DNA from: a virus
Taxonomy: Duplodnaviria > Heunggongvirae > Uroviricota > Caudoviricetes
Strand: one strand, 5' to 3'
IMG/VR virus record: IMGVR_UViG_3300005613_000005
Span: 27,213-91,212 of that record
DNA: 64,000 nucleotides
Positions 12,592 through 55,142 of this stretch are shown here, piece after piece. Below the pieces are notes generated by a model. The model saw nothing but the letters and a program-made list of their open reading frames with translations, made no database searches and had not been told where the DNA came from. Every line of letters starts with the position of its first letter. The stretch's first letter is position 1. A program made the position numbers and the translations under genes.

Positions 12592-12755
12592 GCTGGTCTC
12601 GGGACATAGAACGCCGCCACGAGCTCATGAACGACATGTTCGAGCTCATGGACCTGCTGCTGGGACTAGAGGTGATCGACAAGGACCATATGGTGGTCGT
12701 AGCTCATTTCTGCATAACCAAGCGAAAGCTCCTGGACCGCTGGAAGAAAGATTAA
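12588..12755 (+). CDS. small protein, LLxxLxVI-motif family
   Basis: start trimmed to ATG 12588 (ATGA coupling); MFELMDLLLGLEVIDK. Confidence 0.5.
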   Translation: MSWSRDIERRHELMNDMFELMDLLLGLEVIDKDHMVVVAHFCITKRKLLDRWKKD

Positions 12756-12758
12756 AAC

Positions 12759-12896
12759 GTGGACCTCAGCTTTTCAGACAAGCAGACCGCATACGACTTC
12801 CTGCGTTTCCTTCGCAGGCTCGGCGCGATAGATGAGTGTTGCTTCTTTTTTGTCGCCTATGAGATGGGCTGCCGCAACTGGGTGTCAGAGATATAA
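12759..12896 (+). CDS. small protein, LLxxLxVI-motif family (GTG start, tentative)
   Basis: AYDFLRFLRRLGAIDE. Confidence 0.3.
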   Translation: MDLSFSDKQTAYDFLRFLRRLGAIDECCFFFVAYEMGCRNWVSEI

Positions 12897-12898
12897 CC

Positions 12899-13018
12899 GT
12901 GGGTACTGATTGGTGTTGGATATTCGATGACCCGCTGCAGAGGCTGTGCTTGTTGAGCGATCTCGGGGTCATAGATTTCGGCACGTTTGAACGAGTCATC
13001 AACGAGATCATGCGATAA
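12899..13018 (+). CDS. small protein, LLxxLxVI-motif family (GTG start, tentative)
   Basis: LQRLCLLSDLGVIDF. Confidence 0.3.
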   Translation: MGTDWCWIFDDPLQRLCLLSDLGVIDFGTFERVINEIMR

Positions 13019-13294
13019 AAATACCAGTAAATTTATATAAATATATATATAGGAAGGTACCGGTACCTTTGCGAGGATATAGTACGTTAGGCCACCGGGC
13101 CCTGTTCTAAAAGAAAAAGCTCGCGCTCGCAGTAGGCTGGCGGGGTACTCGGTACCGACGTGAAGCTTCCTTTTGTTAGTCGAGGCCGGCCGGTACCAGC
13201 CGAAACGAGATGTGCTGCGAGCTGTCATGGCCTCGACCACCGTCAAACGACCGACACGACAGCTCAGACGAGAGACAAAGTTAAGGAGGTCAGT

Positions 13295-13411
13295 ATGGGA
13301 GATAACTTCAGGTTCTACTACTATCTCTACCTGGAAGCTGAGCGGAGCGGTTGCGAGATGACCATGGACTGCTGCCTGATGATGATGAGGTTCTACCGAG
13401 ACGAGTACTGA
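13295..13411 (+). CDS. 38-aa Cys/Met/Tyr-rich peptide
   Basis: AAGGAGG 7 nt upstream of ATG; MGDNFRFYYYLYLEAERSGCEMTMDCCLMMMRFYRDEY. Confidence 0.4.
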   Translation: MGDNFRFYYYLYLEAERSGCEMTMDCCLMMMRFYRDEY

Positions 13412-13449
13412 CCGGACGAAACAGGTATTTAAAACTGAAGGAGGTATTT

Positions 13450-13962
13450 ATGAACCAGAGAGAAGCGGTCTACAAGGCAACCCATGCCGTGCTGAAGGAA
13501 GCCGGCATCAGCTTCGAGGACTATCAAGATGGAGGAGTGAAGGACATCGTGACCGACGAGATGAGGAAGCAGATCATCGGGATCGTGTGCGAGGGTTTCA
13601 AGACTGGTGAGGTGGAGTTGAAGGACACCGAGGCGAACAAGTCAAAGCTCGCCAACGAGAGCGAGCTGAGAGCCTACACCTCTGGCCTGGTGAGCAACTG
13701 GCACCGGAAGGACAAGTGCTTCAACGGGAACGAGACCTACAAGGCCAAGAATCCCGGGAGCAGGGCCGGTCAAGGGGACACGCAGATGAAGAACCTCAAG
13801 CTACTCAAGAAGAAGTTCGAGAACGATCCTCAGAAGATCAAGGACATAGACGCTGCCATCAGCAAGAGGACCGAAGAGCTGAGAGCTGCCAGGACCAAGA
13901 CCATCGAGGTCGACTGGAACGAGATACCGGAAGAGCTAAGGACAGCACTTAAAAGCGAGTAA
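13450..13962 (+). CDS. MNQREAVY-family protein, paralog 1
   Basis: GAAGGAGG SD; start trimmed to ATG 13450; shared blocks SGLVSNW.RKD..FNGN..Y.AKNPGSRAGQGD.QMKNL.LL.K. Confidence 0.65.
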   Translation: MNQREAVYKATHAVLKEAGISFEDYQDGGVKDIVTDEMRKQIIGIVCEGFKTGEVELKDTEANKSKLANESELRAYTSGLVSNWHRKDKCFNGNETYKAKNPGSRAGQGDTQMKNLKLLKKKFENDPQKIKDIDAAISKRTEELRAARTKTIEVDWNEIPEELRTALKSE

Positions 13963-13975
13963 GTTAAGCTAAGAC

Positions 13976-13997
13976 GGGCAGGACCGAGGTCCTGCCC
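13976..13997 (+). terminator. GC-rich hairpin downstream of paralog 1
   Basis: GGGCAGGA-ccgagg-TCCTGCCC; no T-tract, so terminator function uncertain. Confidence 0.35.
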
Positions 13998-14001
13998 TCA
14001 A

Positions 14002-14017
14002 TTGACACTGCTACGCC
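14002..14017 (+). repeat. 16-nt conserved motif TTGACACTGCTACGCC (copy 1 of 4)
   Basis: near-identical copies at 14669, 15297, 30414, each after a gene end/hairpin. Confidence 0.7.
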
Positions 14018-14027
14018 GGGGAGCTCT

Positions 14028-14040
14028 GACCGATCCGATA
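14028..14040 (+). promoter_or_regulatory. phage-specific upstream motif GACCGATCCGATA
   Basis: CCGATCCGA core 32 nt upstream of ATG 14060; recurs upstream of many + strand genes. Confidence 0.5.
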
Positions 14041-14059
14041 GGTCTGCTAGGAGGTGGTT

Positions 14060-14236
14060 ATGAAGAACACGATAGTCATAGACTACATGAGGCGAGAGTT
14101 CATACGGTTCGAGACCGAGAACGGCGACGTTCGCTACCTGTTGTACCTGCCGCTGGGAGCTGTCATAAGTCCTGACATAGACACTATCAAGGCGATCATT
14201 GAAGAGGATGTTGAGTATTTGAAGATCGCGGCTTAA
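14060..14236 (+). CDS. hypothetical protein
   Basis: GGAGGTGG SD; ATG 14060. Confidence 0.5.
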   Translation: MKNTIVIDYMRREFIRFETENGDVRYLLYLPLGAVISPDIDTIKAIIEEDVEYLKIAA

Positions 14237-14247
14237 GTTAAGGGTCG

Positions 14248-14445
14248 GTGATGTCTAACCCCCGTCACCGACCACTTTTTCTGGAACCGAAACGATCAGT
14301 TATCGATGATGAGACCTACAGAGAGTCTGGCTGCCACGAGCGTCGAGCAGCAATGGTAGCGATCTCTGACTGCGATAACGGGCAGGTGTCTTCGCAGCGC
14401 CTGCCCACCTTTTGGAGGGATTATGAAGATACCGATATGGATTAA
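14248..14445 (+). CDS. hypothetical protein
   Basis: 65-aa ORF. Confidence 0.4.
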   Translation: MMSNPRHRPLFLEPKRSVIDDETYRESGCHERRAAMVAISDCDNGQVSSQRLPTFWRDYEDTDMD

Positions 14446-14668
14446 AGTTAAAGACTGGAAGATCTATTTCTCGATGTGGGATACTCTGAACTGGGAGTCG
14501 ATAGACTACGATGAGCTGCACTTCTACTATGAGGATCCCAGATATTCCGTTCACGTGGTAGAATAATCTTATGGGTCGTGAGACCCAGCCGGACCAAAGT
14601 TCTGAGCCAGGAACTCGAGGACTTTACTGTCGGGCGCGTCCGGCGCCCGCAGGTTTCCCTTCAAAACA

Positions 14669-14684
14669 CTGACACTGTTACGCC
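14669..14684 (+). repeat. 16-nt motif CTGACACTGTTACGCC (copy 2)
   Basis: preceded by hairpin CGGGCGC-gtccg-GCGCCCG. Confidence 0.7.
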
Positions 14685-14697
14685 CCAGCCGCCGCTC

Positions 14698-14710
14698 GAC
14701 CGATCCGACC
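14698..14710 (+). promoter_or_regulatory. upstream motif GACCGATCCGACC
   Basis: 52 nt upstream of ATG 14750. Confidence 0.45.
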
Positions 14711-14749
14711 TCTAGTCAGAACAAACAAGAAACTTTAAAGGAGGTTAAC

Positions 14750-15256
14750 ATGAACCAGAGAGAAGCAGTCTACACCATCACACACTCCATCCTCAAAGAG
14801 CATGGGGTAACTTTCGAAGACGGGGACAACATCAGTTCCGTCATGACTGACGAGTACCGCAAGCAGATCATCGAAGCGATCGTCACCAGTTTCCAGTCCG
14901 GCAAGATCGACTTCAAAGATACTCAAGCGAACCAGGAAAAATTAGGTGACGTGAGCAAGCTCCGCAGCTATACTTCCGGTCTCGTGAGCAACTGGTTCCG
15001 CAAGGACCCTCGCTTCAACGGCAACGTCAAGTATGAAGCCAAGAACCCAGGTTCAAGGGCAGGTCAAGGCGACGCGCAGATGAAAAACTTAAGGCTCCTC
15101 AAGAAACAGTACGAGGGGACAGACAAGGTAAAAGACATAGACGCCGCCATAGCCGACCGCACCGCCGAGCTCAGGGCTGCCAAGGCCAAGAAAGTTGAAG
15201 TAGACTACACAGCGATACCCGAAGAACTCAAGGAAGCTCTCGGCATCACCGAATAG
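14750..15256 (+). CDS. MNQREAVY-family protein, paralog 2
   Basis: AAAGGAGG SD; ~60% identical to paralogs 1 and 3. Confidence 0.65.
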   Translation: MNQREAVYTITHSILKEHGVTFEDGDNISSVMTDEYRKQIIEAIVTSFQSGKIDFKDTQANQEKLGDVSKLRSYTSGLVSNWFRKDPRFNGNVKYEAKNPGSRAGQGDAQMKNLRLLKKQYEGTDKVKDIDAAIADRTAELRAAKAKKVEVDYTAIPEELKEALGITE

Positions 15257-15296
15257 GTCAAGATACAGCCGGCCGCAGGTCAACCGCTTGCGGCCA

Positions 15297-15312
15297 CTGA
15301 CACTGCTACGCC
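15297..15312 (+). repeat. 16-nt motif CTGACACTGCTACGCC (copy 3)
   Basis: preceded by hairpin GGCCGCA..TGCGGCC. Confidence 0.7.
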
Positions 15313-15595
15313 TACCGACCCCGGCCGCTCCCGGCTAGGGACCTGAGTGGGCCAACGTCGGTCAGCTCGCAGCCGCCCTCTCCATCTAATAATTTAAACA
15401 AAACGTACCCCAAAACCCCCTAGGGAAAGACGGACCTCCACCGATCCTCACCGTCCCTGACAGGGCTCCGGTGCTGGCCCTCGTCGGTCAAGTTCTTTCT
15501 AAGTTAGTTAGCTTGCAACAGTCTGTGAGCCGCCCCACCCCCGCCCCTTGCTGTCTTTTGATCTAATAAAATCAAGGGCTTACATGGCCTTATGC

Positions 15596-15610
15596 AACCG
15601 ATCCGAATTA
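15596..15610 (+). promoter_or_regulatory. upstream motif AACCGATCCGAATTA
   Basis: 30 nt upstream of ATG 15626. Confidence 0.45.
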
Positions 15611-15625
15611 TCCTCGAGGTGGTGC

Positions 15626-15901
15626 ATGAGTAAGCTGCAAGTAGTGGGAATAGAGTCCCTGGAAAGTCTACCACGAGTAGTTGCCTGGTGGCTGCGGTGT
15701 AGTTCAAGGTTAAGTTCTGTAGAAGCTGCTGCTAGGATTCCTGGTCCGAGGTTGCTGGAGAAGTTGTATGAGTTCTTGACCACGGTAGACGTAGAAATGT
15801 TTCGCAGCGGATATGGCTCTAGAAACCGTGATGCTAAAGCTTACGATGTTCACTTAGAGGTCTTGTTCGATGAGATTTTGAGGAGAAGGGTATTATGGTA
15901 G
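15626..15901 (+). CDS. hypothetical protein
   Basis: ORF trimmed to ATG 15626 downstream of motif and GAGGTGG. Confidence 0.45.
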   Translation: MSKLQVVGIESLESLPRVVAWWLRCSSRLSSVEAAARIPGPRLLEKLYEFLTTVDVEMFRSGYGSRNRDAKAYDVHLEVLFDEILRRRVLW

Positions 15902-16059
15902 AAACTTTATTCTGGGGCGTGTTGGTGTTGAGCTGTCTGGTGATAAGCAGATGCATCACCGGCCTGACGCTGTGCTGGTTTGAATACGGTCGTATAGGGA
16001 AGATGATAGACGACCGAGCGGTTTCAAAGGGAGAGTACCGTGAAAAAAATAGGGGCTGA
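15895..16059 (+). CDS. small hydrophobic protein (tentative)
   Basis: 54-aa ORF MVETLFWGVLVLSCLVISRCITGLTLCWF..; overlaps next gene start. Confidence 0.3.
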   Translation: MVETLFWGVLVLSCLVISRCITGLTLCWFEYGRIGKMIDDRAVSKGEYREKNRG

Positions 16060-37336: not shown

Positions 37337-39976
37337 ATGTCAGATAAAATGAGTAGTTTTGCAACCAATATCATGCAGATGAAATATTCACATACGAAAG
37401 CTGATGATACTAAAGAAACATGGGAAGATATAGCACGACGAGTCACGAAAAACGTGATGGCTGAAGTGCCGATCGACAGAAAATTAAAGAAAAGGATAGA
37501 ACAGGCAATATGCGATCGAAAATTTATCCCTGCTGGACGGTATCTGTATGCTTGCGGTCGCCAATATCATCAGGTGCAAAACTGTCTGCTTCTAAGAGCA
37601 GAAGACAGTCGAGAAGGTTGGGCAGAGTTACTGCATAAAGCAGCTATGGCACTGATGACCGGTGCGGGAATAGGCATAGACTATTCTGGCATCAGAGCTG
37701 AGGGCAAAAAAGTTCGCAAGACTGGGGGTTTCGCGACGGGACCTTTGGCGTTGATGCAGATGATGAACGAGTGCGGTAGAGGGATAATGCAGGGAGGTTC
37801 ACGACGTTCTGCCATATGGGCTGGATTATCCTGGCAACATCCTGACATACACAAGTTCATAGACGCGAAAAACTGGCCGTCCGAGATACGTGAGCTGAAG
37901 AGCAAGAATTTCAATTTTCCGGCCACGTTGGACGGCACTAATATATCGGTCATACTAGACGATGAATTTTTCAAAGCGTACAACAACGATCGTCATAGTA
38001 AACATGCCCACGCGCATTCAGTGTATTGGGCTACCATCAAGCGTATGCTAAAGACCGGCGAACCTGGATTTTCAGTTAACTTAGGACAGAACTCCAAAGA
38101 AACACTTAGAAATGCTCCAATTCATAGTAATACACATGTACTTACTAAAAATGGTTATAAACAAGTGATAGATATTGTTAATAAGCCAATAACAATTTGG
38201 ACAGGTAAACAATGGGCTCGAGATGTAGTATTTCATAAAACAATTGAAAATGCAGAGTTGATAAAAGTGAAATTTAGCAATAATCGAGAGATTGTATGTG
38301 AACCTAATCATGAATTTCTAGTTGAAAAATATATTGGAAAAGGCAAAAAATATCGTAAATTAGAATCAATTGATCGAGTTCGTGCCATAGATTTACAAGC
38401 TCAAGATATATTACATGTCAGCATGCCTACATATTATGAAAGTTCATTTGATGAAAATGGATATACTTTTGGGTATATATATGGCGATGGATGTTTTCAT
38501 AAAATATTACCTAGAGCTGAAATAACATTTTGTACTACTGAGTCACAAAAATGTTCTAAATATATAAATACTAAATGGCTAACAAAATCAGACGTTTATA
38601 TGGAAAATAGAGGATATCTACAAGCAAATACAAAAAATTTAGATATACTTAAAAATAGATGTAAATCTATGTTTCCCATAGATATATATGCTAAAGACAT
38701 CAATTTTATATGTTCTTTTATAGCTGGCTTATTTGATGCAGACGGTAATTATGTTCAAAAACGACAGTTATTAAGATTAGGTAGTATACACTTTAATTTT
38801 TTAAAAGGAACTCAGCGACTTTTAGATCAAATAGGAATAAGTAGTTCTATTATTAAAGGCAGTACCGGTAATTTTAAAAATAGTTCTAGCAAATCATGGT
38901 TTTTAATTATACATAGTAACTCTATAAAACATTTTCAACAATTAATACCTACAAAAAGAATAAATGTATGTGCTGATAATTATAATCCTTACAGACAAAC
39001 ATTGATTAAAGTTAAATCGATTGGTTTATTGGACGAACACAGTGACGTATATTGCTGTGATACTAAAGTACCAGAACATAGTTTTATGGCTGAAGGAATA
39101 ATAATATCGAACTGCACTGAAGTGTGCAGCGAAGACGATTCTGATATATGCAACCTAGGTTCTATCAATATGGCAGCGATAGACACGATAGAAGAGTTCA
39201 AGAAGGTCGTAGAACTAGCCACTGCGTTCTTGTTGGCAGGTACTCTATACTCCGATGTTCCTTATCCTAAGGTAGATCAGATCCGATCTAAGAATCGTAG
39301 GTTAGGACTAGGAGTGATGGGCGTTCACGAATGGTTGTTGAAACGAGATAAACCATACGCTCCTGACGAAGAACTAGGTAAATGGTTGGAGATATACGCT
39401 ACGTCAACCGAGATAGCAGCGAGGTATGCCGAACAATGGGACATATCTAAGCCTGTTAAAACTCGAGCTATCGCACCTACAGGAACTATTGGTATACTAG
39501 CAGAAACTACTACCGGTATAGAACCAATCTTTGCTGTTGCCTATAAGCGCAGGTATCTCAAACACCATACATGGCATTACGAGTACGTCGTAGATCCATG
39601 CGCGGCTCGACTAATTGAATCAGGAATTCCAGAATATAAAATCGAGGACGCCTTTAAACTATCGGAAGACATTGAGAAACGCGTCCAGTTTCAAGCGTGG
39701 GTGCAGCAGTACGTAGACCATGGCATATCTTCTACTATAAACTTACCGGCGTGGAAATCCCAACACAATAACGATTACAAGATATTACCGTTCGGTGAGA
39801 TGTTGTTGAAATACTTGCCCAAACTACGCGGCATAACGGTTTTTCCAGACGGCAGTCGCAGCGGTCAACCGTTGACTCCTGTCAAATATAGCACAGCGGT
39901 AAAATATACTGGAGAAGTAGTACAAGAACAAGCCGATATATGCTTAATAACTAAAGGTGGATCATGTGGCGAATAG
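37337..39976 (+). CDS. nrdJ: ribonucleotide reductase, class II-like (NrdJ-type), interrupted by an intein
   Basis: N-terminus ETWEDIARRV resembles monomeric class II RNR; no ATP cone; active-site segment ..NLGQN/CTEVCSEDDSDICNLGSINM parallels SNLCLEI...VCNLASL of RNRs; ~340-aa AT-rich insert carries LAGLIDADG (FIAGLFDADGNYV). Confidence 0.7.
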   Translation: MSDKMSSFATNIMQMKYSHTKADDTKETWEDIARRVTKNVMAEVPIDRKLKKRIEQAICDRKFIPAGRYLYACGRQYHQVQNCLLLRAEDSREGWAELLHKAAMALMTGAGIGIDYSGIRAEGKKVRKTGGFATGPLALMQMMNECGRGIMQGGSRRSAIWAGLSWQHPDIHKFIDAKNWPSEIRELKSKNFNFPATLDGTNISVILDDEFFKAYNNDRHSKHAHAHSVYWATIKRMLKTGEPGFSVNLGQNSKETLRNAPIHSNTHVLTKNGYKQVIDIVNKPITIWTGKQWARDVVFHKTIENAELIKVKFSNNREIVCEPNHEFLVEKYIGKGKKYRKLESIDRVRAIDLQAQDILHVSMPTYYESSFDENGYTFGYIYGDGCFHKILPRAEITFCTTESQKCSKYINTKWLTKSDVYMENRGYLQANTKNLDILKNRCKSMFPIDIYAKDINFICSFIAGLFDADGNYVQKRQLLRLGSIHFNFLKGTQRLLDQIGISSSIIKGSTGNFKNSSSKSWFLIIHSNSIKHFQQLIPTKRINVCADNYNPYRQTLIKVKSIGLLDEHSDVYCCDTKVPEHSFMAEGIIISNCTEVCSEDDSDICNLGSINMAAIDTIEEFKKVVELATAFLLAGTLYSDVPYPKVDQIRSKNRRLGLGVMGVHEWLLKRDKPYAPDEELGKWLEIYATSTEIAARYAEQWDISKPVKTRAIAPTGTIGILAETTTGIEPIFAVAYKRRYLKHHTWHYEYVVDPCAARLIESGIPEYKIEDAFKLSEDIEKRVQFQAWVQQYVDHGISSTINLPAWKSQHNNDYKILPFGEMLLKYLPKLRGITVFPDGSRSGQPLTPVKYSTAVKYTGEVVQEQADICLITKGGSCGE
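38093..39112 (+). other. intein with LAGLIDADG homing endonuclease domain inside RNR gene (approximate boundaries)
   Basis: insert begins at Ser after ..LGQN and ends ..IISN immediately before catalytic-type Cys (CTEV); markedly lower GC than flanking extein. Confidence 0.6.
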
Positions 39977-41480: not shown

Positions 41481-42182
41481 ATGGCTGAAAAGAACAATTT
41501 GAACGATAATGGAGATGAAACTTGGGTATACAAATTCGATGAAGAAGCAGCTCACAAATTCCGAGTTGACGTTAAGAACAAATCAAAGAGGGATCCCAAC
41601 GCGCCTATCATAGTCTACATCGACTCATACGGTGGAAACGTTGATGGCATGGCTAAGATGATAGATACCATGGACGAGATCCCCAATCCTATCATAACAG
41701 TATGCATGGGAAAATCTATGTCTGCTGGGGCTATCCTGTTGTCGCACGGTGACATGCGTTTCTGTTCAAAGAACAGCAGGATAATGATCCATGAGCTTTC
41801 AGCAGGGGCTTTTGGGAACGTTCGCGACATCGCCAACGATACCGATGAGTTGATGAGGATGAACAGGCATTGGATAGGTTTGCTGGCCAAGAACTGCTGC
41901 ATAAGCGGTGGTTACAACGGTATACGCAAAGTCATAAAAGACAACGACAACCAGAGCATCTATCTGGACGCTGTTATGGCAAAACAGTTCGGCATCGTCG
42001 ATTGCATCGGTGTTCCGACCACCAACGCCGCGGTCTTGTACGAGGTCCTGACGTTAAAAGAAAAAGAAAAGAAACACATGCGCATGGAAGACTTCGAGAA
42101 ACTCCAGAAGAAGATAGCAAAACAGGGTGCTAAGAAAAAAGCACGCAAGAAAAAAGCTACGAAAAAGAAAACTAAAAAATGA
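41481..42182 (+). CDS. ClpP-like serine protease (S14 family-like) with Lys-rich tail
   Basis: IVYIDSYGGNV...CMGKSMSAGAILLSHGD.RF...RIMIHEL matches ClpP core motifs. Confidence 0.6.
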   Translation: MAEKNNLNDNGDETWVYKFDEEAAHKFRVDVKNKSKRDPNAPIIVYIDSYGGNVDGMAKMIDTMDEIPNPIITVCMGKSMSAGAILLSHGDMRFCSKNSRIMIHELSAGAFGNVRDIANDTDELMRMNRHWIGLLAKNCCISGGYNGIRKVIKDNDNQSIYLDAVMAKQFGIVDCIGVPTTNAAVLYEVLTLKEKEKKHMRMEDFEKLQKKIAKQGAKKKARKKKATKKKTKK

Positions 42183-42516: not shown

Positions 42517-42672
42517 ATGAGTCTGATAATGGTTAGATTTTTAGTAATTATTGGGATGATTGTATTTTTCACTGTACTAGGAACCTCTATGGGATATGCT
42601 ATAGGGTATGAAAAAGCATATATCAAAGCTAAAACTAGTGAGCGAAGAAAAAAAGACCGTCGAAAAACCTAA
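42517..42672 (+). CDS. small membrane protein
   Basis: 51 aa with TM segment. Confidence 0.35.
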   Translation: MSLIMVRFLVIIGMIVFFTVLGTSMGYAIGYEKAYIKAKTSERRKKDRRKT

Positions 42673-42685
42673 AGAAGGAGAAAAC

Positions 42686-43540
42686 ATGAAATTATTTTTA
42701 TTATTGTGTATGCTGCTCGTGGGTACCAGCGCATTCGCCAAAAATGACAAGAAGCTCGACGTTGTTCTAAAAGATGATAACTTTTTTGCGGTTACTTCAG
42801 TCTTTACAGAACGTCTTTTAGAAGACTTCAATCGTAAAGTTATGACTTACGACGGCGATGAGCTCATCGTGTACATCGATAGCCCAGGAGGCAGCGTATT
42901 TTCTGTAGCGCGCATGGTATCTATAATGAGGTCATCTGAGGTTAAATTTACTTGCGTAGCTCGTTTCGCCGCTTCTGCCGCGTTCACGATGTTTCAAGCC
43001 TGCACCAACAGGTATATCTTGTACGATGGTATCATAATGCAGCACAATGCTTCTGGTATTTTCTGGGATGAATTTCCCAGGATCGAAACATTATATACCG
43101 CGATCAAAGATATAGTTACCGATATGGAAACACAGACAGCAAAAAGGATGAAGATGGAGTTCAAGGATTTCAAGGTGGCCATCAACAACAACCTGTGGTT
43201 GTCTAGGATCACCGCTCCAAAATACAACGCGATCGACGCCGTGATAAACACTATAAAATGCGAAGAGTCACTGATCAAGAAAACCATCACTAAAGCAGAA
43301 AGAAAATGCGGTTGGTTCAGCTGTTCGACTACCTATAAAAAATATTCAGCGTGCCCGCTGTTAACCCTTCCTCTTCCCGAACCTCCTAAAAAAGATAAAC
43401 CTGCTGATGATGGATGGTACGACGATGAATTCTACGATGGACATCCTTTATATCTTCCGTTTGATGAAAAAATCAACACGAACATCAAGAACTTCATGCA
43501 CATAGCCCCTTATACTATTAAAGATAAGATCATGAAATAA
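42686..43540 (+). CDS. secreted ClpP/S49-like serine protease paralog
   Basis: AAGGAG SD; signal peptide MKLFLLLCMLLVGTSAFA; LIVYIDSPGGSV...ARFAASAAFTMF...IIMQHN. Confidence 0.55.
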   Translation: MKLFLLLCMLLVGTSAFAKNDKKLDVVLKDDNFFAVTSVFTERLLEDFNRKVMTYDGDELIVYIDSPGGSVFSVARMVSIMRSSEVKFTCVARFAASAAFTMFQACTNRYILYDGIIMQHNASGIFWDEFPRIETLYTAIKDIVTDMETQTAKRMKMEFKDFKVAINNNLWLSRITAPKYNAIDAVINTIKCEESLIKKTITKAERKCGWFSCSTTYKKYSACPLLTLPLPEPPKKDKPADDGWYDDEFYDGHPLYLPFDEKINTNIKNFMHIAPYTIKDKIMK

Positions 43541-48705: not shown

Positions 48706-48714
48706 TGGTATAAT
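48706..48714 (+). promoter_or_regulatory. extended -10 promoter TGGTATAAT for tRNA array
   Basis: ~120 nt upstream of first tRNA. Confidence 0.4.
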
Positions 48715-48836: not shown

Positions 48837-48912
48837 GAGTCGGTGGTGATAACGGTAACACGTCAGGCTGTTAACCTGTAAGATCTAGGTTCGATTCCTA
48901 GCCGGCCCGCCA
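48837..48912 (+). tRNA. tRNA-Asn(GTT)-like, possible pseudo-tRNA
   Basis: cloverleaf with A2:C71 acceptor mismatch and weak anticodon stem; loop ctGTTaa; encoded CCA. Confidence 0.4.
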
Positions 48913-48935
48913 AAATTGAATAGGAGATTTAACGA

Positions 48936-49012
48936 GCCACCGTAGCTCAGAATGGCAGAGCGCGGGCCTGAAGAGCCCGGTGTCGGAGTTTCGATACCTC
49001 CCGGTGGCACCA
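48936..49012 (+). tRNA. tRNA-Phe(GAA)
   Basis: acceptor GCCACCG/CGGTGGC, loop ctGAAga, T-loop, CCA. Confidence 0.8.
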
Positions 49013-49046
49013 GGTATTTGAAAAACGAATAGTAGAATGAGATTGT

Positions 49047-49342
49047 GGAGACGGCAAGACCGTTACTGGGAGGTGAAAACCCCTGGAGGATAAAGTCCGG
49101 ACACCGAAGAGCAGCGTAGTGGCTAACGGCCACCCGTCAGGAAGACGAGGACTAGTGGAACAGAGACGAGCCAGTTAAGTCTGGAATGAAACGGCTAAAC
49201 TCTACGCGGTGCAACGCCAAATAGGCTAGCTATTGACCTATGCTCGGGGGACGTTGGCGGGTAGGCGGCAGTGAGCTGGAAGGTAACGACCAGCCCAGAT
49301 AGATTACGGTCGAGGTACAGAATCCGGCTTATTACCGTCTCC
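49047..49342 (+). ncRNA. rnpB: RNase P RNA (bacterial type A-like, reduced)
   Basis: GGAGGATAAAGTCCGGAC (P4 5' strand), GTGGAACAGAGACGAGCC, CGGTGCAACGCCAAATAGGC, GGGTAGGC..CAGTGAGC, GTACAGAATCCGGCTTAT (P4 3' strand); P1 pairing GGAGACGG/CCGTCTCC. Confidence 0.75.
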
Positions 49343-49370
49343 ATCCGGCCAGGAACAATCTCAAAACAAA

Positions 49371-49471
49371 GGAAGACTTATCCGAAAGATTCTGGGTAGC
49401 GGAGACTGTCTTGAAAACAGTTTGGTGAAATATAAGTAGCCGTCAGGGTTCGAATCCCTGGTCTTCCGCCA
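49371..49471 (+). tRNA. tRNA-Ser(TGA), long-arm type, unusually long (101 nt)
   Basis: acceptor GGAAGAC/GTCTTCC, loop ctTGAaa, long variable arm, CCA. Confidence 0.55.
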
Positions 49472-49473
49472 AA

Positions 49474-49557
49474 GGGGTATCTGCGGAGTGGGATCCGCGC
49501 GAGCCTGTAGAGCTCGTGCCGCTGCGCTAGGAGGTTCGATTCCTTAATACCCCACCA
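49474..49557 (+). tRNA. tRNA-Tyr(GTA)
   Basis: acceptor GGGGTAT/ATACCCC, loop ctGTAga, 13-nt variable arm. Confidence 0.7.
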
Positions 49558-49560
49558 GAC

Positions 49561-49636
49561 GCTCACGTAGCCCAACGGGAGAGGCAGCAGCTTCAAACGC
49601 TGAAGAGTGTTGGTTCGAATCCAACCGTGAGTACCA
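49561..49636 (+). tRNA. tRNA with anticodon CAA (Leu-reading) but short variable arm
   Basis: 76 nt, loop ttCAAac, 5-nt variable region, discriminator A. Confidence 0.5.
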
Positions 49637-49637
49637 A

Positions 49638-49714
49638 GCGGAGGTAACCCAACAGGAAGAGGTAGCAGGCTTAAACCCTGTTCAGCATGGGTTCAAATCC
49701 CATCCTCCGCACCA
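49638..49714 (+). tRNA. tRNA with anticodon TAA (Leu-reading), short variable arm
   Basis: acceptor GCGGAGG/CCTCCGC, loop ctTAAac. Confidence 0.55.
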
Positions 49715-49715
49715 C

Positions 49716-49788
49716 GCCTCGGTGGTCTAACAGATAAGGCACTGGTCTTCTAAGCTAATTGATGTGGGTTCGACTCCTACCTGAGACA
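49716..49788 (+). tRNA. tRNA-Arg(TCT)
   Basis: loop ctTCTaa; C2:A71 mismatch and weak anticodon stem; no encoded CCA. Confidence 0.45.
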
Positions 49789-49792
49789 CTAT

Positions 49793-49882
49793 GGAAGGTA
49801 AACTGGCATGGTGCCAGGCTTGCCTGCTAAGCAATGCGCGCTCTTATACGGGCGTATGGTTCGACTCCATTGCCTTCCGCCA
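49793..49882 (+). tRNA. tRNA-Ser(GCT)
   Basis: 90 nt, loop ctGCTaa, long variable arm, CCA. Confidence 0.7.
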
Positions 49883-49973
49883 AGTCTATTTAAAAATATA
49901 GTAAAACAACAATATGCATAATTATGTGCATCAACGGCTGTTTGAACAGCAATGGTAACAGAAAGTAGACATT

Positions 49974-50297
49974 ATGTCTAAAATTAAAGTTAAATTTGAA
50001 GAGCCTAGTTTTTGTAGTTACGACAATGTTTGGAAAATTTCATGGACTATAAACGGACGCAGAACTAATTCTTTCAGTAGTCGTGGCAAAAGAATAGGCC
50101 AGACTATCTCGCCTAAACAAATAGCAAATGAATATCGAGAGGCATTAAAAAGAGGACAAATTGTAGTTGATTTTTTAACTCAAAAAATCACCCGCAAACA
50201 AGCTATCAATAATTTAAAAGACCTGCGATTTCTATGCCCTAAAAACCAAACATCACATTTATTAACATTAGCAGAATTTGCTTTAAATTTACGTTAA
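49974..50297 (+). CDS. hypothetical protein inside tRNA array
   Basis: 107-aa AT-rich ORF between tRNA subclusters. Confidence 0.4.
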   Translation: MSKIKVKFEEPSFCSYDNVWKISWTINGRRTNSFSSRGKRIGQTISPKQIANEYREALKRGQIVVDFLTQKITRKQAINNLKDLRFLCPKNQTSHLLTLAEFALNLR

Positions 50298-50298
50298 T

Positions 50299-50376
50299 TG
50301 GTGTCCTCGACCGGATTTGAACCGGTGTCTCCGGAGTGAAAGTCCGATATCCTAGACCTGACTAGACGACGAGGAC
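50299..50376 (-). tRNA. tRNA-Glu(TTC), opposite strand
   Basis: rc GTCCTCG...ctTTCac...CGAGGAC-A-CCA. Confidence 0.75.
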
Positions 50377-50377
50377 C

Positions 50378-50455
50378 TGGTACTCGGGAGTGGACTTGAA
50401 CCACCGACCTCTGCCTTATCAGAGCAGCGCTACTAACCAACTGAGCTACCCGAGC
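50378..50455 (-). tRNA. tRNA-Ile(GAT), opposite strand
   Basis: rc GCTCGGGTAGCTCAGTTGGTTAG...ctGATaa...GGTTCAAGTCC. Confidence 0.8.
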
Positions 50456-50614
50456 ATGTTCGTTTCTGTTTACAGATTGTATGGGATAACGGGTGCGCGT
50501 TTACGCAACAGACAACTCAACGCACACCTTACATTCGATCTCAATAATAATAAGTTCAAGTGTACGTTTCATCATTAACCCATTATACCACACTTTGTTA
50601 GGTATAAATAATAT

Positions 50615-50812
50615 ATGGATAAGATAAGTAAGTGCGATAAACATCCTAAGTATAATGGATCGAAGAAACCCAGGACTGATTGCGATCAGTGTTGGAAGAT
50701 ATATTTGAAAAAACAAGAACGCAAGAAACGCGTGCCGATCAGACCGACCAAAGTGATACCAGACAAGACCAAGTACACGCGCAAGAAGAAACATAAGAAA
50801 AAAGAGGAGTGA
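50615..50812 (+). CDS. hypothetical basic protein
   Basis: 65 aa Lys-rich. Confidence 0.45.
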   Translation: MDKISKCDKHPKYNGSKKPRTDCDQCWKIYLKKQERKKRVPIRPTKVIPDKTKYTRKKKHKKKEE

Positions 50813-50814
50813 GT

Positions 50815-51093
50815 ATGTCAGTGACAGTAAGTTATCTACTCTCAATGGAAAAAAGTTTAAAAGCCAGGTTAGGCCAACTCAAAGAACTAAGGAGCGAGGT
50901 CTCAACGCTCGAGAGATGGGGCGACAGGGACAAGATCAAAGAACCGCAGTACGATGTAAAGGCGGTAGACAAGATGATAAGCGACATCAACAAGGTCCTG
51001 TTCGAGATCGACCAGAAGATCAAGGAGAGCAACGCTCGCACAAAAATTAAGATTAACGTAGACTATAACGAGTTAATGTCAGAGATCAAGTAA
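50815..51093 (+). CDS. hypothetical coiled-coil protein
   Basis: ATG 50815 after GAGGAG. Confidence 0.45.
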   Translation: MSVTVSYLLSMEKSLKARLGQLKELRSEVSTLERWGDRDKIKEPQYDVKAVDKMISDINKVLFEIDQKIKESNARTKIKINVDYNELMSEIK

Positions 51094-51298
51094 GCGATTA
51101 CTTGCATCCACGACATAGAAGAGGACTGACTTCGATGTCGAGAGAAGAACGTTCCACACTAATGCTGGACGCGTGGTATGACCCCGCATAAAACATTGTT
51201 GTTGATCAGGGGTGCTCACAAATTGTCCGTTGATTGTGGTTGGTTGTTGTCTTTAGTTCTTCTCGTCCTCTTTTTTTTATCACTTAATAAAAATTATA

Positions 51299-51307
51299 TG
51301 GTATAAT
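51299..51307 (+). promoter_or_regulatory. extended -10 promoter TGGTATAAT for second tRNA block
   Basis: upstream of 51500 tRNA block. Confidence 0.4.
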
Positions 51308-51499
51308 GTATTTTATGATTACTAACTTTATAAATCTCATAGTTCAGATACTGAAAGGAACATGTCAAGGCGTGGATACCAACGCCATGGTTCCTTGTCG
51401 TGTGCGTGCTGCCCGACCTATGCGACATATAAAGGCGCCATGGCGTAAGTAATCAAAATCTAGTAAGCAAATCAAATTAAATTTAATAGGTTTTGACGA

Positions 51500-51575
51500 G
51501 GGCTGGTGGTGATAACGGCCAACACGCCGCGCTTGCACCGCGGAGATCAGGGTTCGATTCCCTGCCGGTCCACCA
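51500..51575 (+). tRNA. tRNA-Ala(TGC)
   Basis: acceptor GGGCTGG/CCGGTCC (two G:U), loop ctTGCac. Confidence 0.7.
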
Positions 51576-51612
51576 AGATTTTTGACAACTGAATAGGTAG
51601 ATCATAAAACGA

Positions 51613-51687
51613 TGGGGAATAGTGCAATGGCTAGCACGACGGGCTTTGAACCCGTTAGTGGTGGTTCGAATCCACCTTCCCCAACCA
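51613..51687 (+). tRNA. tRNA-Gln(TTG)
   Basis: U1:A72, loop ctTTGaa. Confidence 0.75.
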
Positions 51688-51688
51688 T

Positions 51689-51764
51689 GCGAGTGTAGCT
51701 CACCGAGAAGAGCGTCGGTCTTCCAAACCGAAGGCAGCGGGTGCAAGTCCCGCCTCTCGCTCCA
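51689..51764 (+). tRNA. tRNA-Gly(TCC)
   Basis: loop ctTCCaa; one acceptor mismatch. Confidence 0.65.
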
Positions 51765-51765
51765 T

Positions 51766-51842
51766 GCCAGAGTAGCCCAATTGGAAGAGGCATACGGCTT
51801 AGACCCGTAGTGTTGTGAGTTCGAATCTCACCTCTGGTACCA
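51766..51842 (+). tRNA. tRNA with anticodon TAG (Leu-reading), short variable arm
   Basis: acceptor GCCAGAG/CTCTGGT, loop ctTAGac. Confidence 0.55.
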
Positions 51843-51843
51843 A

Positions 51844-51920
51844 CTGAGTGTAGCGCAGTCTGGTAGCGCGCCTGGCCTGGGCCCAGGAGGTCGGAGGTTC
51901 GAATCCTCCCACTCAGACCA
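51844..51920 (+). tRNA. tRNA-Pro(TGG)
   Basis: acceptor CTGAGTG/CACTCAG, loop ccTGGgc. Confidence 0.75.
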
Positions 51921-51929
51921 AGTAAACGA

Positions 51930-52004
51930 TGGCGCTTGGTGTAACAGATAGCATATCAGGCTACGAACCTGAAGATGAGGGTGCAATTCCTTCAGTGCCA
52001 ACCA
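51930..52004 (+). tRNA. tRNA-Arg(ACG)
   Basis: U1:A72, loop ctACGaa. Confidence 0.7.
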
Positions 52005-52011
52005 TATATAT

Positions 52012-52086
52012 GCCCGCGTGACCGAGTAGCTTAGGACACGGACTGCAAATCCGTGCACGCTGGTGCAAATCCAGCCGCGGGCTCCA
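52012..52086 (+). tRNA. tRNA-Cys(GCA)
   Basis: acceptor GCCCGCG/CGCGGGC, loop ctGCAaa. Confidence 0.7.
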
Positions 52087-52087
52087 C

Positions 52088-52163
52088 AGACGAGTAGCTC
52101 ACCGAGAAGAGCGCTAGCCTTACAAGCTAGAGGCAGTGGGTGCGAGTCCCTCCTCGTCTACCA
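52088..52163 (+). tRNA. tRNA-Val(TAC)
   Basis: A1:U72, loop ctTACaa. Confidence 0.65.
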
Positions 52164-52164
52164 T

Positions 52165-52244
52165 GGGCGTGTATCGGCTTACTCTTATAAGGTATAGAAA
52201 CCGTAATTGGAGACATGGAGGTTCGAGTCCTCCCACGCCCACCA
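52165..52244 (+). tRNA. atypical tRNA-like gene (anticodon undetermined)
   Basis: perfect acceptor GGGCGTG/CACGCCC and T-arm but no canonical D/anticodon arms. Confidence 0.35.
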
Positions 52245-52245
52245 C

Positions 52246-52319
52246 GCTCCATTAGTTCAGTGGCAGAACTGCTGTCTTGTAAACAGCGTACAGAGGTTCG
52301 ATTCCTCTATGGAGCTCCA
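52246..52319 (+). tRNA. tRNA-Thr(TGT)
   Basis: acceptor GCTCCAT/ATGGAGC, loop ctTGTaa. Confidence 0.8.
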
Positions 52320-52320
52320 G

Positions 52321-52394
52321 GGGCGGTTAGTGTAACGGCAGCACGTCGGCTTCCAAACCCGACAGTTTGGGTTCAAATCCTAAGCCGCCCGCCA
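52321..52394 (+). tRNA. tRNA-Trp(CCA)
   Basis: loop ttCCAaa. Confidence 0.7.
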
Positions 52395-52398
52395 ACGA

Positions 52399-52473
52399 GG
52401 TGCTATAGTGTAGTGGTTATCACGCCGGACTGTCTATCCGGAGACCGGGGTTCGATTCCCCGTAGCACCGCCA
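52399..52473 (+). tRNA. tRNA-Asp(GTC)
   Basis: acceptor GGTGCTA/TAGCACC, loop ctGTCta. Confidence 0.8.
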
Positions 52474-52492
52474 GATAAGGTATAATATCAAC

Positions 52493-52762
52493 GTGATAAC
52501 AACGATCAGTAAAAAAATTTTAGATATACTTTTAAACGTGACCGCAACGAACAGTCATGAAAAATGTCCTTACTGCGAACGAACTTTAAAGTACGACAGG
52601 ATAGTTGAGTGCGATATATACGAATCCGTTCATCCTACCAACTACGGTATGTGGTTTACGTTCACGTATAAAAAATGCCCGTGCAACTACGGCCCTTCTA
52701 CTGTAAGCAATCACTTGATCATCGATCATCTTCTATATAAATTAGGTATCAGGTACACGTAG
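52493..52762 (+). CDS. hypothetical Cys-rich protein inside tRNA array
   Basis: 89-aa ORF (CPYC...CPC); TATAAT upstream. Confidence 0.4.
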   Translation: MITTISKKILDILLNVTATNSHEKCPYCERTLKYDRIVECDIYESVHPTNYGMWFTFTYKKCPCNYGPSTVSNHLIIDHLLYKLGIRYT

Positions 52763-52800
52763 TCAAATTTGAGTTTTTAAACATATTTAAAGACCTAGAT

Positions 52801-52875
52801 GTGACTATAGTGTAACGGTCAGCACGAGAGGTTGTGGTCCTCTAAGTGAGGGTTCGAGTCCCTCTAGTCACCCCA
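52801..52875 (+). tRNA. tRNA-His(GTG)
   Basis: loop ttGTGgt; discriminator C73; no encoded G-1. Confidence 0.75.
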
Positions 52876-52944
52876 GGTCAATAAAAAATTTCCGATCGAA
52901 CGGGGGAAATCTGCAGCTTGGAAATTATACGGTATAATATGTAT

Positions 52945-53020
52945 GGCGGGATAGAGCAGTGGTCAGCTCACAGGTCTCATAAGCCTGGCGTCGGTGGTTC
53001 GAATCCACCTCCCGCTACCA
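52945..53020 (+). tRNA. tRNA-Met(CAT) (elongator-type, or Ile-lysidine)
   Basis: loop ctCATaa; lacks initiator hallmarks. Confidence 0.7.
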
Positions 53021-53826: not shown

Positions 53827-54266
53827 AAAAGAAAGCTATCATAGTTGACCTGGACGGAACCTTGTGCAACACCAAGCATCGCAACCATATACTGGAAACA
53901 AATCCCGGCAACTGGGACAAGTTCAACGAGGGTATCCCGTTTGATATCCCCAACCCGTGGTGCATGGAAATAGTAGAGAACTTCGCGAAAGAAGGGTATC
54001 ACATCCTTTTCGTCACCGGCAGAAACTCCAACACACACGACGCTACGGAGCAATGGTTAAGAACTTACCTGAACCCGACCGTCCAATGGGACCTGCACAT
54101 GAGACCCGACCACAACTACATCGCAGATACCATAATTAAAACAAACATCTATTTCACTAAGATACTGCCATTCTACGACGTGGTGTTCTGCGTCGACGAC
54201 AAACGTTCCATATGCGATCTGTGGAGAAGTTTAGGACTAGTAGCCCTTCACTGCGAAGATTACTGA
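53823..54266 (+). CDS. HAD-superfamily phosphatase (polynucleotide 3'-phosphatase / nucleotidase-like)
   Basis: motif I IIVDLDGTL (DxDGT); FVTGR; C-terminal CVDDK. Confidence 0.6.
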   Translation: MKKKAIIVDLDGTLCNTKHRNHILETNPGNWDKFNEGIPFDIPNPWCMEIVENFAKEGYHILFVTGRNSNTHDATEQWLRTYLNPTVQWDLHMRPDHNYIADTIIKTNIYFTKILPFYDVVFCVDDKRSICDLWRSLGLVALHCEDY

Positions 54267-55042
54267 TTCTCGGGGATTATATCTTCGCCCGACTCGTCGA
54301 TGATTATGTCGGGATCAAACTCTTCTTTCTTAGGTACTGTAACATCTATCTTGACTATCCCTTTACGGTTCGTACGCTTATATAAATCTTTGATCAGTTT
54401 CTTGAGTTCTTTTTCGTCGGGCGCATTCGACATCTTAGCTATCCTTGATCTTCGTAAGTTACCCCGCTTCTTGGGTTGAATTATGTTGTCGGCGATTCCC
54501 AACGACACTGCTTCACTCGCGGTTATGTAGACGTCACGCTGCAAGATGTCGTTCCAGAAACTTTCCGGCATATGTGAGTTCTCTGCGAATAGTTTGTCAA
54601 GCTTGCTTTGCAGGTCCTTAGTTGATTTAGCTTCGATCTGTACGTCGGTATGCTTACCCTCTATCTCGTCCAACCCGTCGTGCAACATTATCTCAGTGTT
54701 GGGATATAAGTTCCTTTCATCACATATCGCCATAAGCCAGGTCGCCGCTGATGCTATCTGTCCGCCGCCGAAAAACTTAACCTGACAAGGGCAAGACAGT
54801 ATGACGTCGACCAGACGCAGCATCGACGTGGCACTACCACCGCACGACTGTATATGTAACTCTATAGGTTTCTTAGGATTGTCTGATACTAATAGGTGGA
54901 TAGCTCGAACAGCTTTCTCAACGGTGTTCCAACTGAACTCTTCGTGTCCCTCATCGTTCAACACGCCAAAATATATGCGCCGCATCTTACGATCAAAGTT
55001 TCTCTCAAAAATCTCCTCGACACGGCTGTTTTTATCAGACAT
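54260..55042 (-). CDS. ClpP-like serine protease, third paralog
   Basis: start trimmed to M27 (MSDKNSRV) which has AGGAG + TGGTATAAT upstream; IELHIQSCGGSATSMLRLVDVI...TEIMLHDG. Confidence 0.55.
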   Translation of the reverse strand: MSDKNSRVEEIFERNFDRKMRRIYFGVLNDEGHEEFSWNTVEKAVRAIHLLVSDNPKKPIELHIQSCGGSATSMLRLVDVILSCPCQVKFFGGGQIASAATWLMAICDERNLYPNTEIMLHDGLDEIEGKHTDVQIEAKSTKDLQSKLDKLFAENSHMPESFWNDILQRDVYITASEAVSLGIADNIIQPKKRGNLRRSRIAKMSNAPDEKELKKLIKDLYKRTNRKGIVKIDVTVPKKEEFDPDIIIDESGEDIIPENQ

Positions 55043-55061
55043 CTTCACTCCTATTGATACT

Positions 55062-55070
55062 ATTATACCA
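55062..55070 (-). promoter_or_regulatory. extended -10 promoter (TGGTATAAT on minus strand)
   Basis: rc of 55062..55070 followed by AGGAG and ATG 55042. Confidence 0.4.
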
Positions 55071-55142
55071 CCGTGAACGTAGTATGCTATCGTGCGAGTT
55101 TCAATAACCGATTCGATCAATATTCAGAATTGAGGTGCATGT

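Follow-up and report, generated by a model that had tools for sequence, protein, structure and literature searches.

Type I tRNA-Leu genes in a phage tRNA cluster belong to a widespread armless family

According to a 2023 review of tRNA identity, tRNA-Leu carries a long variable arm everywhere except in animal mitochondria (PMC9976931). In Escherichia coli, leucine identity resides in A73, the A15-U48 pair, G18G19, A20a and the contact of the D loop with the T loop; the sequence and folding of the long arm are uncorrelated with leucylation, and armless variants stay active (PMC9976931). Serine identity relies on the long arm, and a C2-G71 pair acts as an antideterminant against seryl-tRNA synthetase (SerRS) (PMC9976931). 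A natural type I tRNA-Leu(CAA) has been described in Streptomyces coelicolor, where it coexists with type II isoacceptors and is leucylated both by its own leucyl-tRNA synthetase (LeuRS) and by human mitochondrial LeuRS; it has C48, and a C48A mutant kept its activity (Fan et al. 2019, PMC6614811). Here we describe three type I tRNA-Leu genes, with anticodons CAA, UAA and UAG, in the tRNA cluster of a tailed phage, IMG/VR virus record IMGVR_UViG_3300005613_000005 (Caudoviricetes), of which positions 27,213 to 91,212, a stretch of 64,000 nucleotides (nt), were analysed and are called the window below. We conclude that the three genes very probably encode functional, leucine-accepting elongator tRNAs of an armless lineage that is widespread in phage tRNA clusters and in the long tRNA arrays of bacteria.

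The three genes and their family

ARAGORN, which the initial annotation of this DNA had proposed running, calls three tRNA-Leu genes, all on the plus strand: tRNA-Leu(CAA) of 76 nt (49561..49636), tRNA-Leu(UAA) of 77 nt (49638..49714) and tRNA-Leu(UAG), likewise of 77 nt (51766..51842). The general tRNA model of Rfam, which has a gathering score of 29, gives them 57.1, 57.4 and 57.8 bits, respectively, with E values of about 1e-10. A positional parse finds in all three an acceptor stem of 7 base pairs (bp) followed by U8 and A9; a D stem of 3 bp with a C13.A22 mismatch, A14, A15, G18 and G19; an anticodon stem of 5 bp closing a 7-nt loop with U33 and A37 (TTCAAAC for CAA, CTTAAAC for TAA and CTTAGAC for TAG); a T stem of 5 bp with the loop TTCRAAT (TTCGAAT or TTCAAAT; T54-T55-C56-R57-A58); and A73 followed by an encoded CCA. 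Pair 1:72 is G1.U72 in Leu(CAA) and Leu(UAG) and G1-C72 in Leu(UAA), and C2-G71 is present in Leu(CAA). The three share the D-arm pattern GTARCCCAAYNGGAAGAGGYA, the D-loop of Leu(CAA) being 1 nt shorter. The individual D-arms are GCCCAACGGGAGAGGC in Leu(CAA), with 16 nt, ACCCAACAGGAAGAGGT in Leu(UAA), with A10-U25, and GCCCAATTGGAAGAGGC in Leu(UAG), which is the consensus of the family described below.

The mark of the canonical bacterial type II tRNA-Leu, a variable arm of more than 10 nt with its own stem, is absent from all three. Their variable loops have 5 nt and no extra stem (AGAGT in Leu(CAA), TCAGC in Leu(UAA) and GTGTT in Leu(UAG)), with U48 in Leu(CAA) and Leu(UAG) and C48 in Leu(UAA). 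The initial annotation, made from the letters alone, had described three tRNAs with the leucine anticodons CAA, TAA and TAG and short, type I arms, folding as canonical cloverleafs of 76-77 nt with 5-nt variable regions and A73; ARAGORN, Rfam and the positional parse agree with it on each of these points. It had also named two findings that would overturn this description, a long variable arm hidden in an alternative fold and an anticodon loop of 8 nt. We looked for both by thermodynamic folding and by the parse, and folding of the three tRNAs never gave either. Single-sequence minimum-free-energy (MFE) folding reproduces the full cloverleaf for none of the three, as is usual for tRNAs, and so neither helps nor refutes. 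An anticodon or loop size mis-assigned by ARAGORN is excluded by the parse together with the Rfam scores.

The shared D-arm pattern is far from confined to this phage. Among viruses, GTARCCCAAYNGGAAGAGGYA is matched 110 times on 109 IMG/VR contigs; 100 of these matches lie within tRNAs of 74-77 nt with a leucine anticodon, none lies in a tRNA of another isotype, and the rest lie in no tRNA. In bacteria, for which contigs of one genome per species were scanned, at least 120 contigs carry the pattern, and among the matches listed 98 of 123 fall in short Leu tRNAs, 23 are fragments or uncalled as tRNA, and in two the anticodon differs by a single base, giving His(ATG) and Ser(AGA). Viral and bacterial short Leu tRNAs with the pattern measure 74-79 nt and together carry TAA, TAG, CAA, GAG, CAG and AAG, that is, all six leucine anticodons of the UUR and CUN boxes. 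Because these anticodons span two unrelated codon boxes, leucine is the sole property that unites them.

Long arrays, with 10-35 tRNAs inside 8 kb, account for most of the bacterial matches listed and come from cyanobacteria, actinobacteria, planctomycetes, verrucomicrobia and bacteroidetes. In actinomycetes some matches are solitary genes, the majority of them from Pseudonocardiales-type genera and nearly all with the anticodon TAA; at seven loci of such genera (L115, L128, L147, L167, L177, L179 and L186) the short-armed Leu(TAA) is the only tRNA within 8 kb. These lone genes may be readers of UUA comparable to bldA, and they suggest that the armless lineage has been domesticated on chromosomes beyond the CAA case of S. 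coelicolor. Isolated 5' halves of armless tRNA-Leu that run on into unrelated sequence were also observed, at L150 (about 500-560), L116, L189 and some 20 other bacterial loci, and may be remnants of the integration sites of mobile elements.

Conservation was measured over 285 non-redundant short Leu tRNAs. A73 is present in 280 of the 285, the variable loop has 5 nt in 247 (87%), with the consensus NCAGU, and U48 is found in 245 of 247 members; these features, like the anticodons, lie outside the pattern by which the family was collected and are unbiased by it. C2-G71 occurs in 202 of the 285. In the 194 members of fixed length, cloverleaf pairs are standard in 93.7% of cases, compared with 36-48% after the partners have been shifted. 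Filtering made no use of the anticodon stem, which is 91-99.5% paired and has 4-6 pair types at each position, so that compensatory change in the family is abundant.

Two subfamilies can be distinguished. Subfamily A, whose D-arm class comprises 236 of the 285 members, has the signature U8 A9 R10 C11 C12 C13 A14 A15 Y N G18 G19 .. A22 G23 G24 Y25, a 7-nt anticodon loop in which U33 and a purine at 37 flank a leucine anticodon (YAA or NAG), 4-6 nt and no additional stem in the variable region, and A73; all three window tRNAs show the signature and each of these features. A minority subfamily B (32 of 285) has G9, a D-arm like that of type II tRNAs and the variable loop RUUUU, which suggests that the arm has been lost more than once. 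When the anticodon is masked, 149 of the 150 nearest neighbours of the three window tRNAs, among 2395 tRNAs, are short Leu tRNAs (50 of 50 for Leu(CAA)), and inside the window each of the three has the other two as its nearest neighbours. This analysis excludes that they arose from another isotype by a shift of anticodon.

How does the short form relate to the long one? The type II Leu tRNAs in related loci measure 80-92 nt and share with the short ones a D-arm architecture that is unlike that of other isotypes: 17 nt, a 3-bp stem, an unpaired 13:22, A14 A15, G18G19 and the loop AAYNGGNAGA. Among Leu tRNAs, 13:22 is unpaired in 96% of the short and 90% of the long ones; it is paired in 64-100% of most other isotypes. 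The D-arm consensus is GCCCAATTGGAAGAGGC for the short and GCGGAATTGGTAGACAC for the long form. This Leu-type D-arm, in combination with A73, as in canonical type II tRNA-Leu, is present in all three window tRNAs. Type II Leu tRNAs are present as well at about a third of the loci. Where both types occur together (n=56), an anticodon is shared between them in only 5 loci; in 2000 permutations the mean was 20.4 and the lowest value 12. In the closest relative found, IMG/VR contig L023, which has in common with the window the gene orders Asn-Phe-RNase P RNA-Ser-Tyr-Leu(TAA)-Arg and Thr-Trp-Asp-His, an 87-nt type II Leu(TAG) precedes Pro(TGG), in the slot that the 77-nt type I Leu(TAG) occupies in the window. 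The two types are thus evolutionarily interchangeable.

A consensus short Leu query matches 579 records of cultured phages in INPHARED, and in 469 of these the match covers 80% or more of the query. Among the matching records, in which the usual annotation is a plain tRNA-Leu, are those of 132 Mycobacterium, 119 Escherichia, 78 Salmonella, 33 Vibrio and 29 Streptomyces phages. A type II Leu query matches 509 cultured-phage records, 250 of them over at least 80%. With 579 and 509 matching records, short Leu tRNAs are about as common as long ones among phages, and the premise of the initial annotation that phage tRNA-Leu is normally of type II does not hold.

Codon meaning, leucine identity and the loss of the arm

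The meaning of the codons was examined in the ribonucleotide reductase (RNR) of this phage, which was aligned with 119 homologs of 50-60% identity and scored at columns conserved in at least 80%. At conserved leucine columns the phage has TTA in 10 of 10 cases, TTG in 8 of 8 and CTA in 8 of 8 in agreement with leucine, 26 of 26 in all; over all conserved columns the standard code agrees at 339 of 368, the exceptions being scattered conservative substitutions. There is thus no recoding, and UUA, UUG and CUA mean leucine in this phage. The suspicion of an altered code is lifted for the window, and gene calls and translations made with the standard table are safe.

Over 63 open reading frames (ORFs), leucine is encoded by TTA (24%), TTG (20%), CTG (17%), CTT (15%), CTA (12%) and CTC (12%). 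The initial annotation had supposed that the three tRNAs read exactly the leucine codons that the phage over-uses; this is right for TTA and TTG, the two commonest, but CTA is not over-used. The tRNA set of the phage has U34 for every four-codon box except Arg (ACG) and G34 or U34 for split boxes, and UAA, CAA and UAG look like the U34/C34 leucine part of a near-complete minimal decoding set that covers both leucine boxes.

Together, gene structure, family conservation and covariation, the leucine meaning of the codons and the interchangeability with type II genes make functional leucine tRNAs very probable; expression, leucylation and a benefit to the phage we infer. The genes would be transcribed from phage promoters within polycistronic tRNA blocks and the tRNAs excised by RNase P and 3' nucleases, with the CCA already encoded. 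The host LeuRS would then charge them with leucine through A73, U8:A14, the A15:N48 Levitt pair, G18G19 and the Leu-type D-loop. Loss of the long arm would be tolerated because the arm is not an identity element for LeuRS in E. coli, and the Ser tRNAs of the same clusters would keep theirs because SerRS depends on it; lacking a long arm and having A73 and C2-G71, the short Leu tRNAs should not be mischarged by SerRS. In decoding, UAA would read UUA and UUG, CAA would read UUG, and UAG would read CUA and CUG and possibly all CUN codons, so that the three would serve at least 56% of the leucine codons of the phage as part of its near-complete tRNA set.

Several points weigh against this conclusion. 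The family was gathered by its D-arm pattern, so that its D-arm statistics (A14 and A15 in 223 of 223 members, G18 in 222 and G19 in 218 of 223) are biased upward. Leu(UAA) carries C48, which is rare in the family (1 of 247), together with A10-U25. The codon-column test gives the meaning of codons in phage genes, not which tRNA reads them. Finally, E. coli LeuRS is reported not to charge the type I tRNA-Leu of S. coelicolor (Fan et al. 2019, PMC6614811), so that charging may depend on the LeuRS of the host.

That failure, with the a priori argument that LeuRS might fail to recognise a type I body, is also what can be said for sense-codon recoding, in which the armless tRNAs would be charged with an amino acid other than leucine and UUA, UUG and CUA would be read differently than in the host. 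The initial annotation had set this beside the alternative that the tRNAs are genuine leucine acceptors and are recognised mainly by A73 and by tertiary features. The idea of a different amino acid is contradicted by the 26 leucine columns of the RNR alignment, by a single family that carries all six leucine anticodons from two unrelated boxes, by the conservation of A73, A14, A15:U48 and the Leu-type D-loop, and by the lack, in the nearest-neighbour analysis, of any similarity of the tRNA bodies to another isotype; we give recoding practically no credence. The same family-wide leucine identity set, Leu-type D-arm and restriction of anticodons to the two leucine boxes support genuine acceptors. 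Pseudogenes, or decoys outside translation that stay unaminoacylated and titrate tRNA-targeting nucleases of the host or other factors, would have precedents of a kind: phage tRNAs act against tRNA-cleaving defences such as retron-Eco7 and Septu, which cleave tRNA-Tyr in its variable loop (PMC13096335), and bacterial tRNA arrays have been termed putative anti-defence units (PMC12803027). The stems of these genes are intact, however, their loops canonical, their CCA encoded and their covariance scores high; compensatory changes run throughout the family, and its anticodons are conserved and complementary to those of co-resident type II Leu tRNAs. The discriminator is conserved as well, and a decoy would need neither A73, nor an anticodon loop of exactly 7 nt, nor a non-redundant anticodon. 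We therefore regard decoys as very improbable, if less so than recoding.

Why, then, was the arm lost? The three tRNAs could still be leucine decoders whose armless form is kept to escape a host defence that recognises or cuts the long arm or the body of the host-type tRNA-Leu. An anti-defence role is suggested by analogy with the cleavage of tRNA-Tyr by retron-Eco7 and Septu, and human SLFN11 is reported to target type II tRNAs; armless tRNA-Leu is found mainly in mobile settings (phage clusters and long arrays), and subfamilies A and B point to at least two losses of the arm. Yet no bacterial defence that targets the variable arm of tRNA-Leu was found in the literature, and the bacterial Schlafen that has been studied cuts the anticodon arms of Lys, Met, Ala and other tRNAs. 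In the same clusters the arms of the Tyr and Ser tRNAs are kept, about one locus in three has type II Leu tRNAs besides the armless ones, and relaxed constraint with genome economy suffices without any defence. Escape from a defence is thus unlikely as the reason for the armless form, though a more serious candidate than decoys. A broader proposal, which we hold to be similarly doubtful, is that armless tRNA-Leu is a mobile-element lineage that spreads among the phages and arrays of many phyla, is domesticated in some actinomycetes, and is retained because the armless form and a re-engineered core (A9, C12-G23, C13.A22) hide it from some factor that acts on the type II tRNA-Leu of the host (for instance a defence nuclease, toxin or regulatory enzyme), with LeuRS still charging it. 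If this were true, such invisibility would amount to an anti-defence device built into a component of translation.

The tRNA cluster and its phage

The source of the window is a novel large myovirus. Its RNR is identical to a protein on a 157,173-bp ENA metagenome contig (ERZ27256772 k141_2301005); the closest RNRs of cultured phages, those of an acidobacterial phage and of Streptomyces phages, have 56-60% amino-acid identity, and when the tRNA cluster was compared with cultured phages by megablast, no match at the DNA level emerged. Relatives were also sought in IMG/VR through the ClpP-like protein that neighbours the cluster, and none was found. The GC content of the window is about 40-45%, and the composition profile has a local peak of 52% at 12001-16000, compared with about 40% elsewhere. 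Besides many small ORFs, the window encodes a tail sheath and a virion structural protein, a class II-like RNR with an intein, an ATP-dependent DNA ligase, ClpP-like proteases and a NUDIX protein. The intein in the large subunit of RNR (37337-39976, plus strand) lies at about residues 300-592, carries a LAGLIDADG homing endonuclease, and is present in most of the closest metagenomic homologs too. Three homologs of ClpP/S49-like proteases were seen (41481-42182 and 42608-43540, plus strand; 54260-55120, minus strand), one of which resembles a head maturation protease; the other two are ClpP-like, without close viral relatives found. Among 20 proteins scanned from the larger ORFs, a subset of all ORFs, there was no phage LeuRS or other aminoacyl-tRNA synthetase.

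The tRNA cluster that holds the three Leu genes (48837..53020, both strands) comprises 22 tRNAs called by ARAGORN, with Rfam support, of which 20 lie on the plus strand and two, Glu and Ile, on the minus strand; it covers 19 amino acids, and the spacers near the Leu genes are of 1-3 nt. Directly upstream of Leu(CAA) stand tRNA-Ser(TGA) of 88 nt and tRNA-Tyr(GTA) of 84 nt (together 49384..49557, plus strand), both called by ARAGORN and Rfam and both of type II with long variable arms. A further type II gene, similar to tRNA-Ser(GCU) and missed by ARAGORN, lies at 49793..49878 (plus strand), where the Rfam tRNA-Sec model gives 43.5 bits, below its gathering score; it has the loop CTGCTAA, a variable-arm stem of 6 bp, G73 and CCA, and its MFE fold is cloverleaf-like with a long arm. 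Since Ser(TGA), Tyr(GTA) and the Ser(GCT)-like gene all have long arms, the short arm is specific to Leu within the cluster. The same holds over the clusters of the family, where Ser tRNAs are long in 87 cases and short in 5 and Tyr tRNAs long in 25 and short in none. Leu(UAG) stands directly upstream of tRNA-Pro(TGG).

Some other members of the cluster depart from the norm. The weakest is tRNA-Arg(TCT) (49716-49789, plus strand), with 43.4 bits; its acceptor stem has a C2.A71 mismatch, and it lacks the encoded CCA that almost all of its neighbours have. Between tRNA-Val and tRNA-Thr lies a tRNA-like element (52165-52244, plus strand) that ARAGORN missed and that matches a tmRNA model weakly (24 bits). 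Its acceptor stem is perfect (GGGCGTG/CACGCCC), and there is a T arm (GGAGG-TTCGAGT-CCTCC) as well as A73 and CCA, but its core is aberrant. It contains a CTTATAA loop with a possible anticodon UAU; the same slot holds tRNA-Ile(TAT) in L023, and ATA makes up 50% of the Ile codons of the window, but comparison of the element with tRNA-Ile(UAU) genes gave no convincing alignment. No tRNA-Lys was found in the cluster or in the whole window, although AAA is the commonest codon (842 in 63 ORFs). L023 carries Lys(TTT) and Lys(CTT), and the matching region of the window consists of a small ORF and the minus-strand Glu and Ile tRNAs, which suggests a rearrangement there; a tRNA-Lys gene may lie elsewhere on the 157-kb contig.

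Between tRNA-Phe and tRNA-Ser the cluster contains a compact bacterial class A RNase P RNA of 300 nt (49047..49346, plus strand; Rfam RF00010, 179.6 bits against a gathering score of 100). Homologs with 153-178 bits occupy the same position on three IMG/VR viral contigs, two of them of about 177 kb: L010 (837-1139, minus strand), L023 (1887-2183, plus strand) and L051 (1627-1930, plus strand). This RNA is a probable 5'-processing ribozyme for the polycistronic tRNA transcripts. We know of no description of a phage-encoded RNase P RNA, and a survey paper on huge phages makes no mention of one.

The motif GGTATAAT occurs 17 times in the window, where 2.3 occurrences are expected and none of 100 shuffles reached 17, and most of its sites, which include 48707, 51300, 52479 and 52931 on the plus strand and 50582 on the minus strand, lie just upstream of genes and tRNA blocks. 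One copy (48707..48714, plus strand) is about 120 nt upstream of the first tRNA, in front of the block with Leu(CAA) and Leu(UAA); another (51300..51307, plus strand) precedes the block Ala-Gln-Gly-Leu(UAG)-Pro-Arg-Cys-Val and its continuation. The motif is likely to be an extended -10 promoter element of the phage.

Comparison with described armless tRNA-Leu

No paper that describes the armless tRNA-Leu family of phages as such was found in the searchable literature, and a dedicated computational study of the tRNAs of Moogle-like phages makes no mention of the armless feature. The members nearest at hand are those of cultured phages: Ounavirinae (Citrobacter phage Michonne, Felix O1-like), Bixzunavirus (Mycobacterium phage LRRHood/Bxz1) and Synechococcus phage S-CRM01, among others, carry the same family, and the short Leu genes in the 579 INPHARED records include full-length matches of 75-88% identity. 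In Michonne the three tRNA-Leu measure 77-79 nt and the tRNA-Ser 90 and 93 nt, and the Bxz1-like LRRHood has Leu(cag, gag, caa) of 74-76 nt. The window phage differs from these cultured phages in being unrelated at the DNA level and in carrying the set UAA, CAA and UAG.

In bacteria, a short variable loop was remarked in passing for the tRNA-Leu(TAG) of mycobacterial tRNA arrays (Behra et al. 2019, PMC6582537). The arrays of cyanobacteria, actinobacteria and planctomycetes, with 10-35 tRNAs each, hold members of the same D-arm family; unlike the genome of a lytic-type myovirus, they are bacterial, and possibly derived from plasmids or phages. The type I tRNA-Leu of S. coelicolor is similar in its 5-nt variable loop, ACAGC compared with UCAGC in Leu(UAA) of the window, and in its canonical G18G19, U8:A14 pair and A73 (PMC6614811). 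In contrast to the window genes, that gene is chromosomal and essential in a high-GC actinomycete, and the comparison is one of description and variable loop only; the S. coelicolor system also departs from the identity rules of E. coli, in that A73 is no identity element there (PMC6614811).

Two further systems resemble the phage tRNAs in function or shape. The 'minimalist' armless tRNA-Leu of E. coli is charged by LeuRS if A73 and the tertiary interactions of the D and T loops are intact (Giege and Eriani 2023, PMC9976931), and the same features are conserved in the family of the window tRNAs, but these variants are engineered molecules and the phage genes are natural ones. The variable loop of the type I tRNA-Leu of animal mitochondria is likewise short, and A73 and A14 serve as identity elements there. 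Animal mitochondrial tRNAs, however, have degenerate D and T loops and a dedicated LeuRS, whereas the three phage tRNAs keep canonical bacterial D and T loops; the likeness is one of convergence, not of membership.

The three genes of the window add to a kind of tRNA that is known but has been little described. Although the Streptomyces type I tRNA is reportedly rejected by E. coli LeuRS, members of the family are found in enterobacterial phages, which poses the question of which LeuRS enzymes accept them; for this question, as for that of the preference of mobile elements for the armless form, the cultured Felix O1-like and Bxz1-like phages are tractable systems. A conserved armless tRNA-Leu that is widespread in bacterial arrays stands in contrast to the textbooks and to the view that the long arm is universal outside animal mitochondria (PMC9976931).

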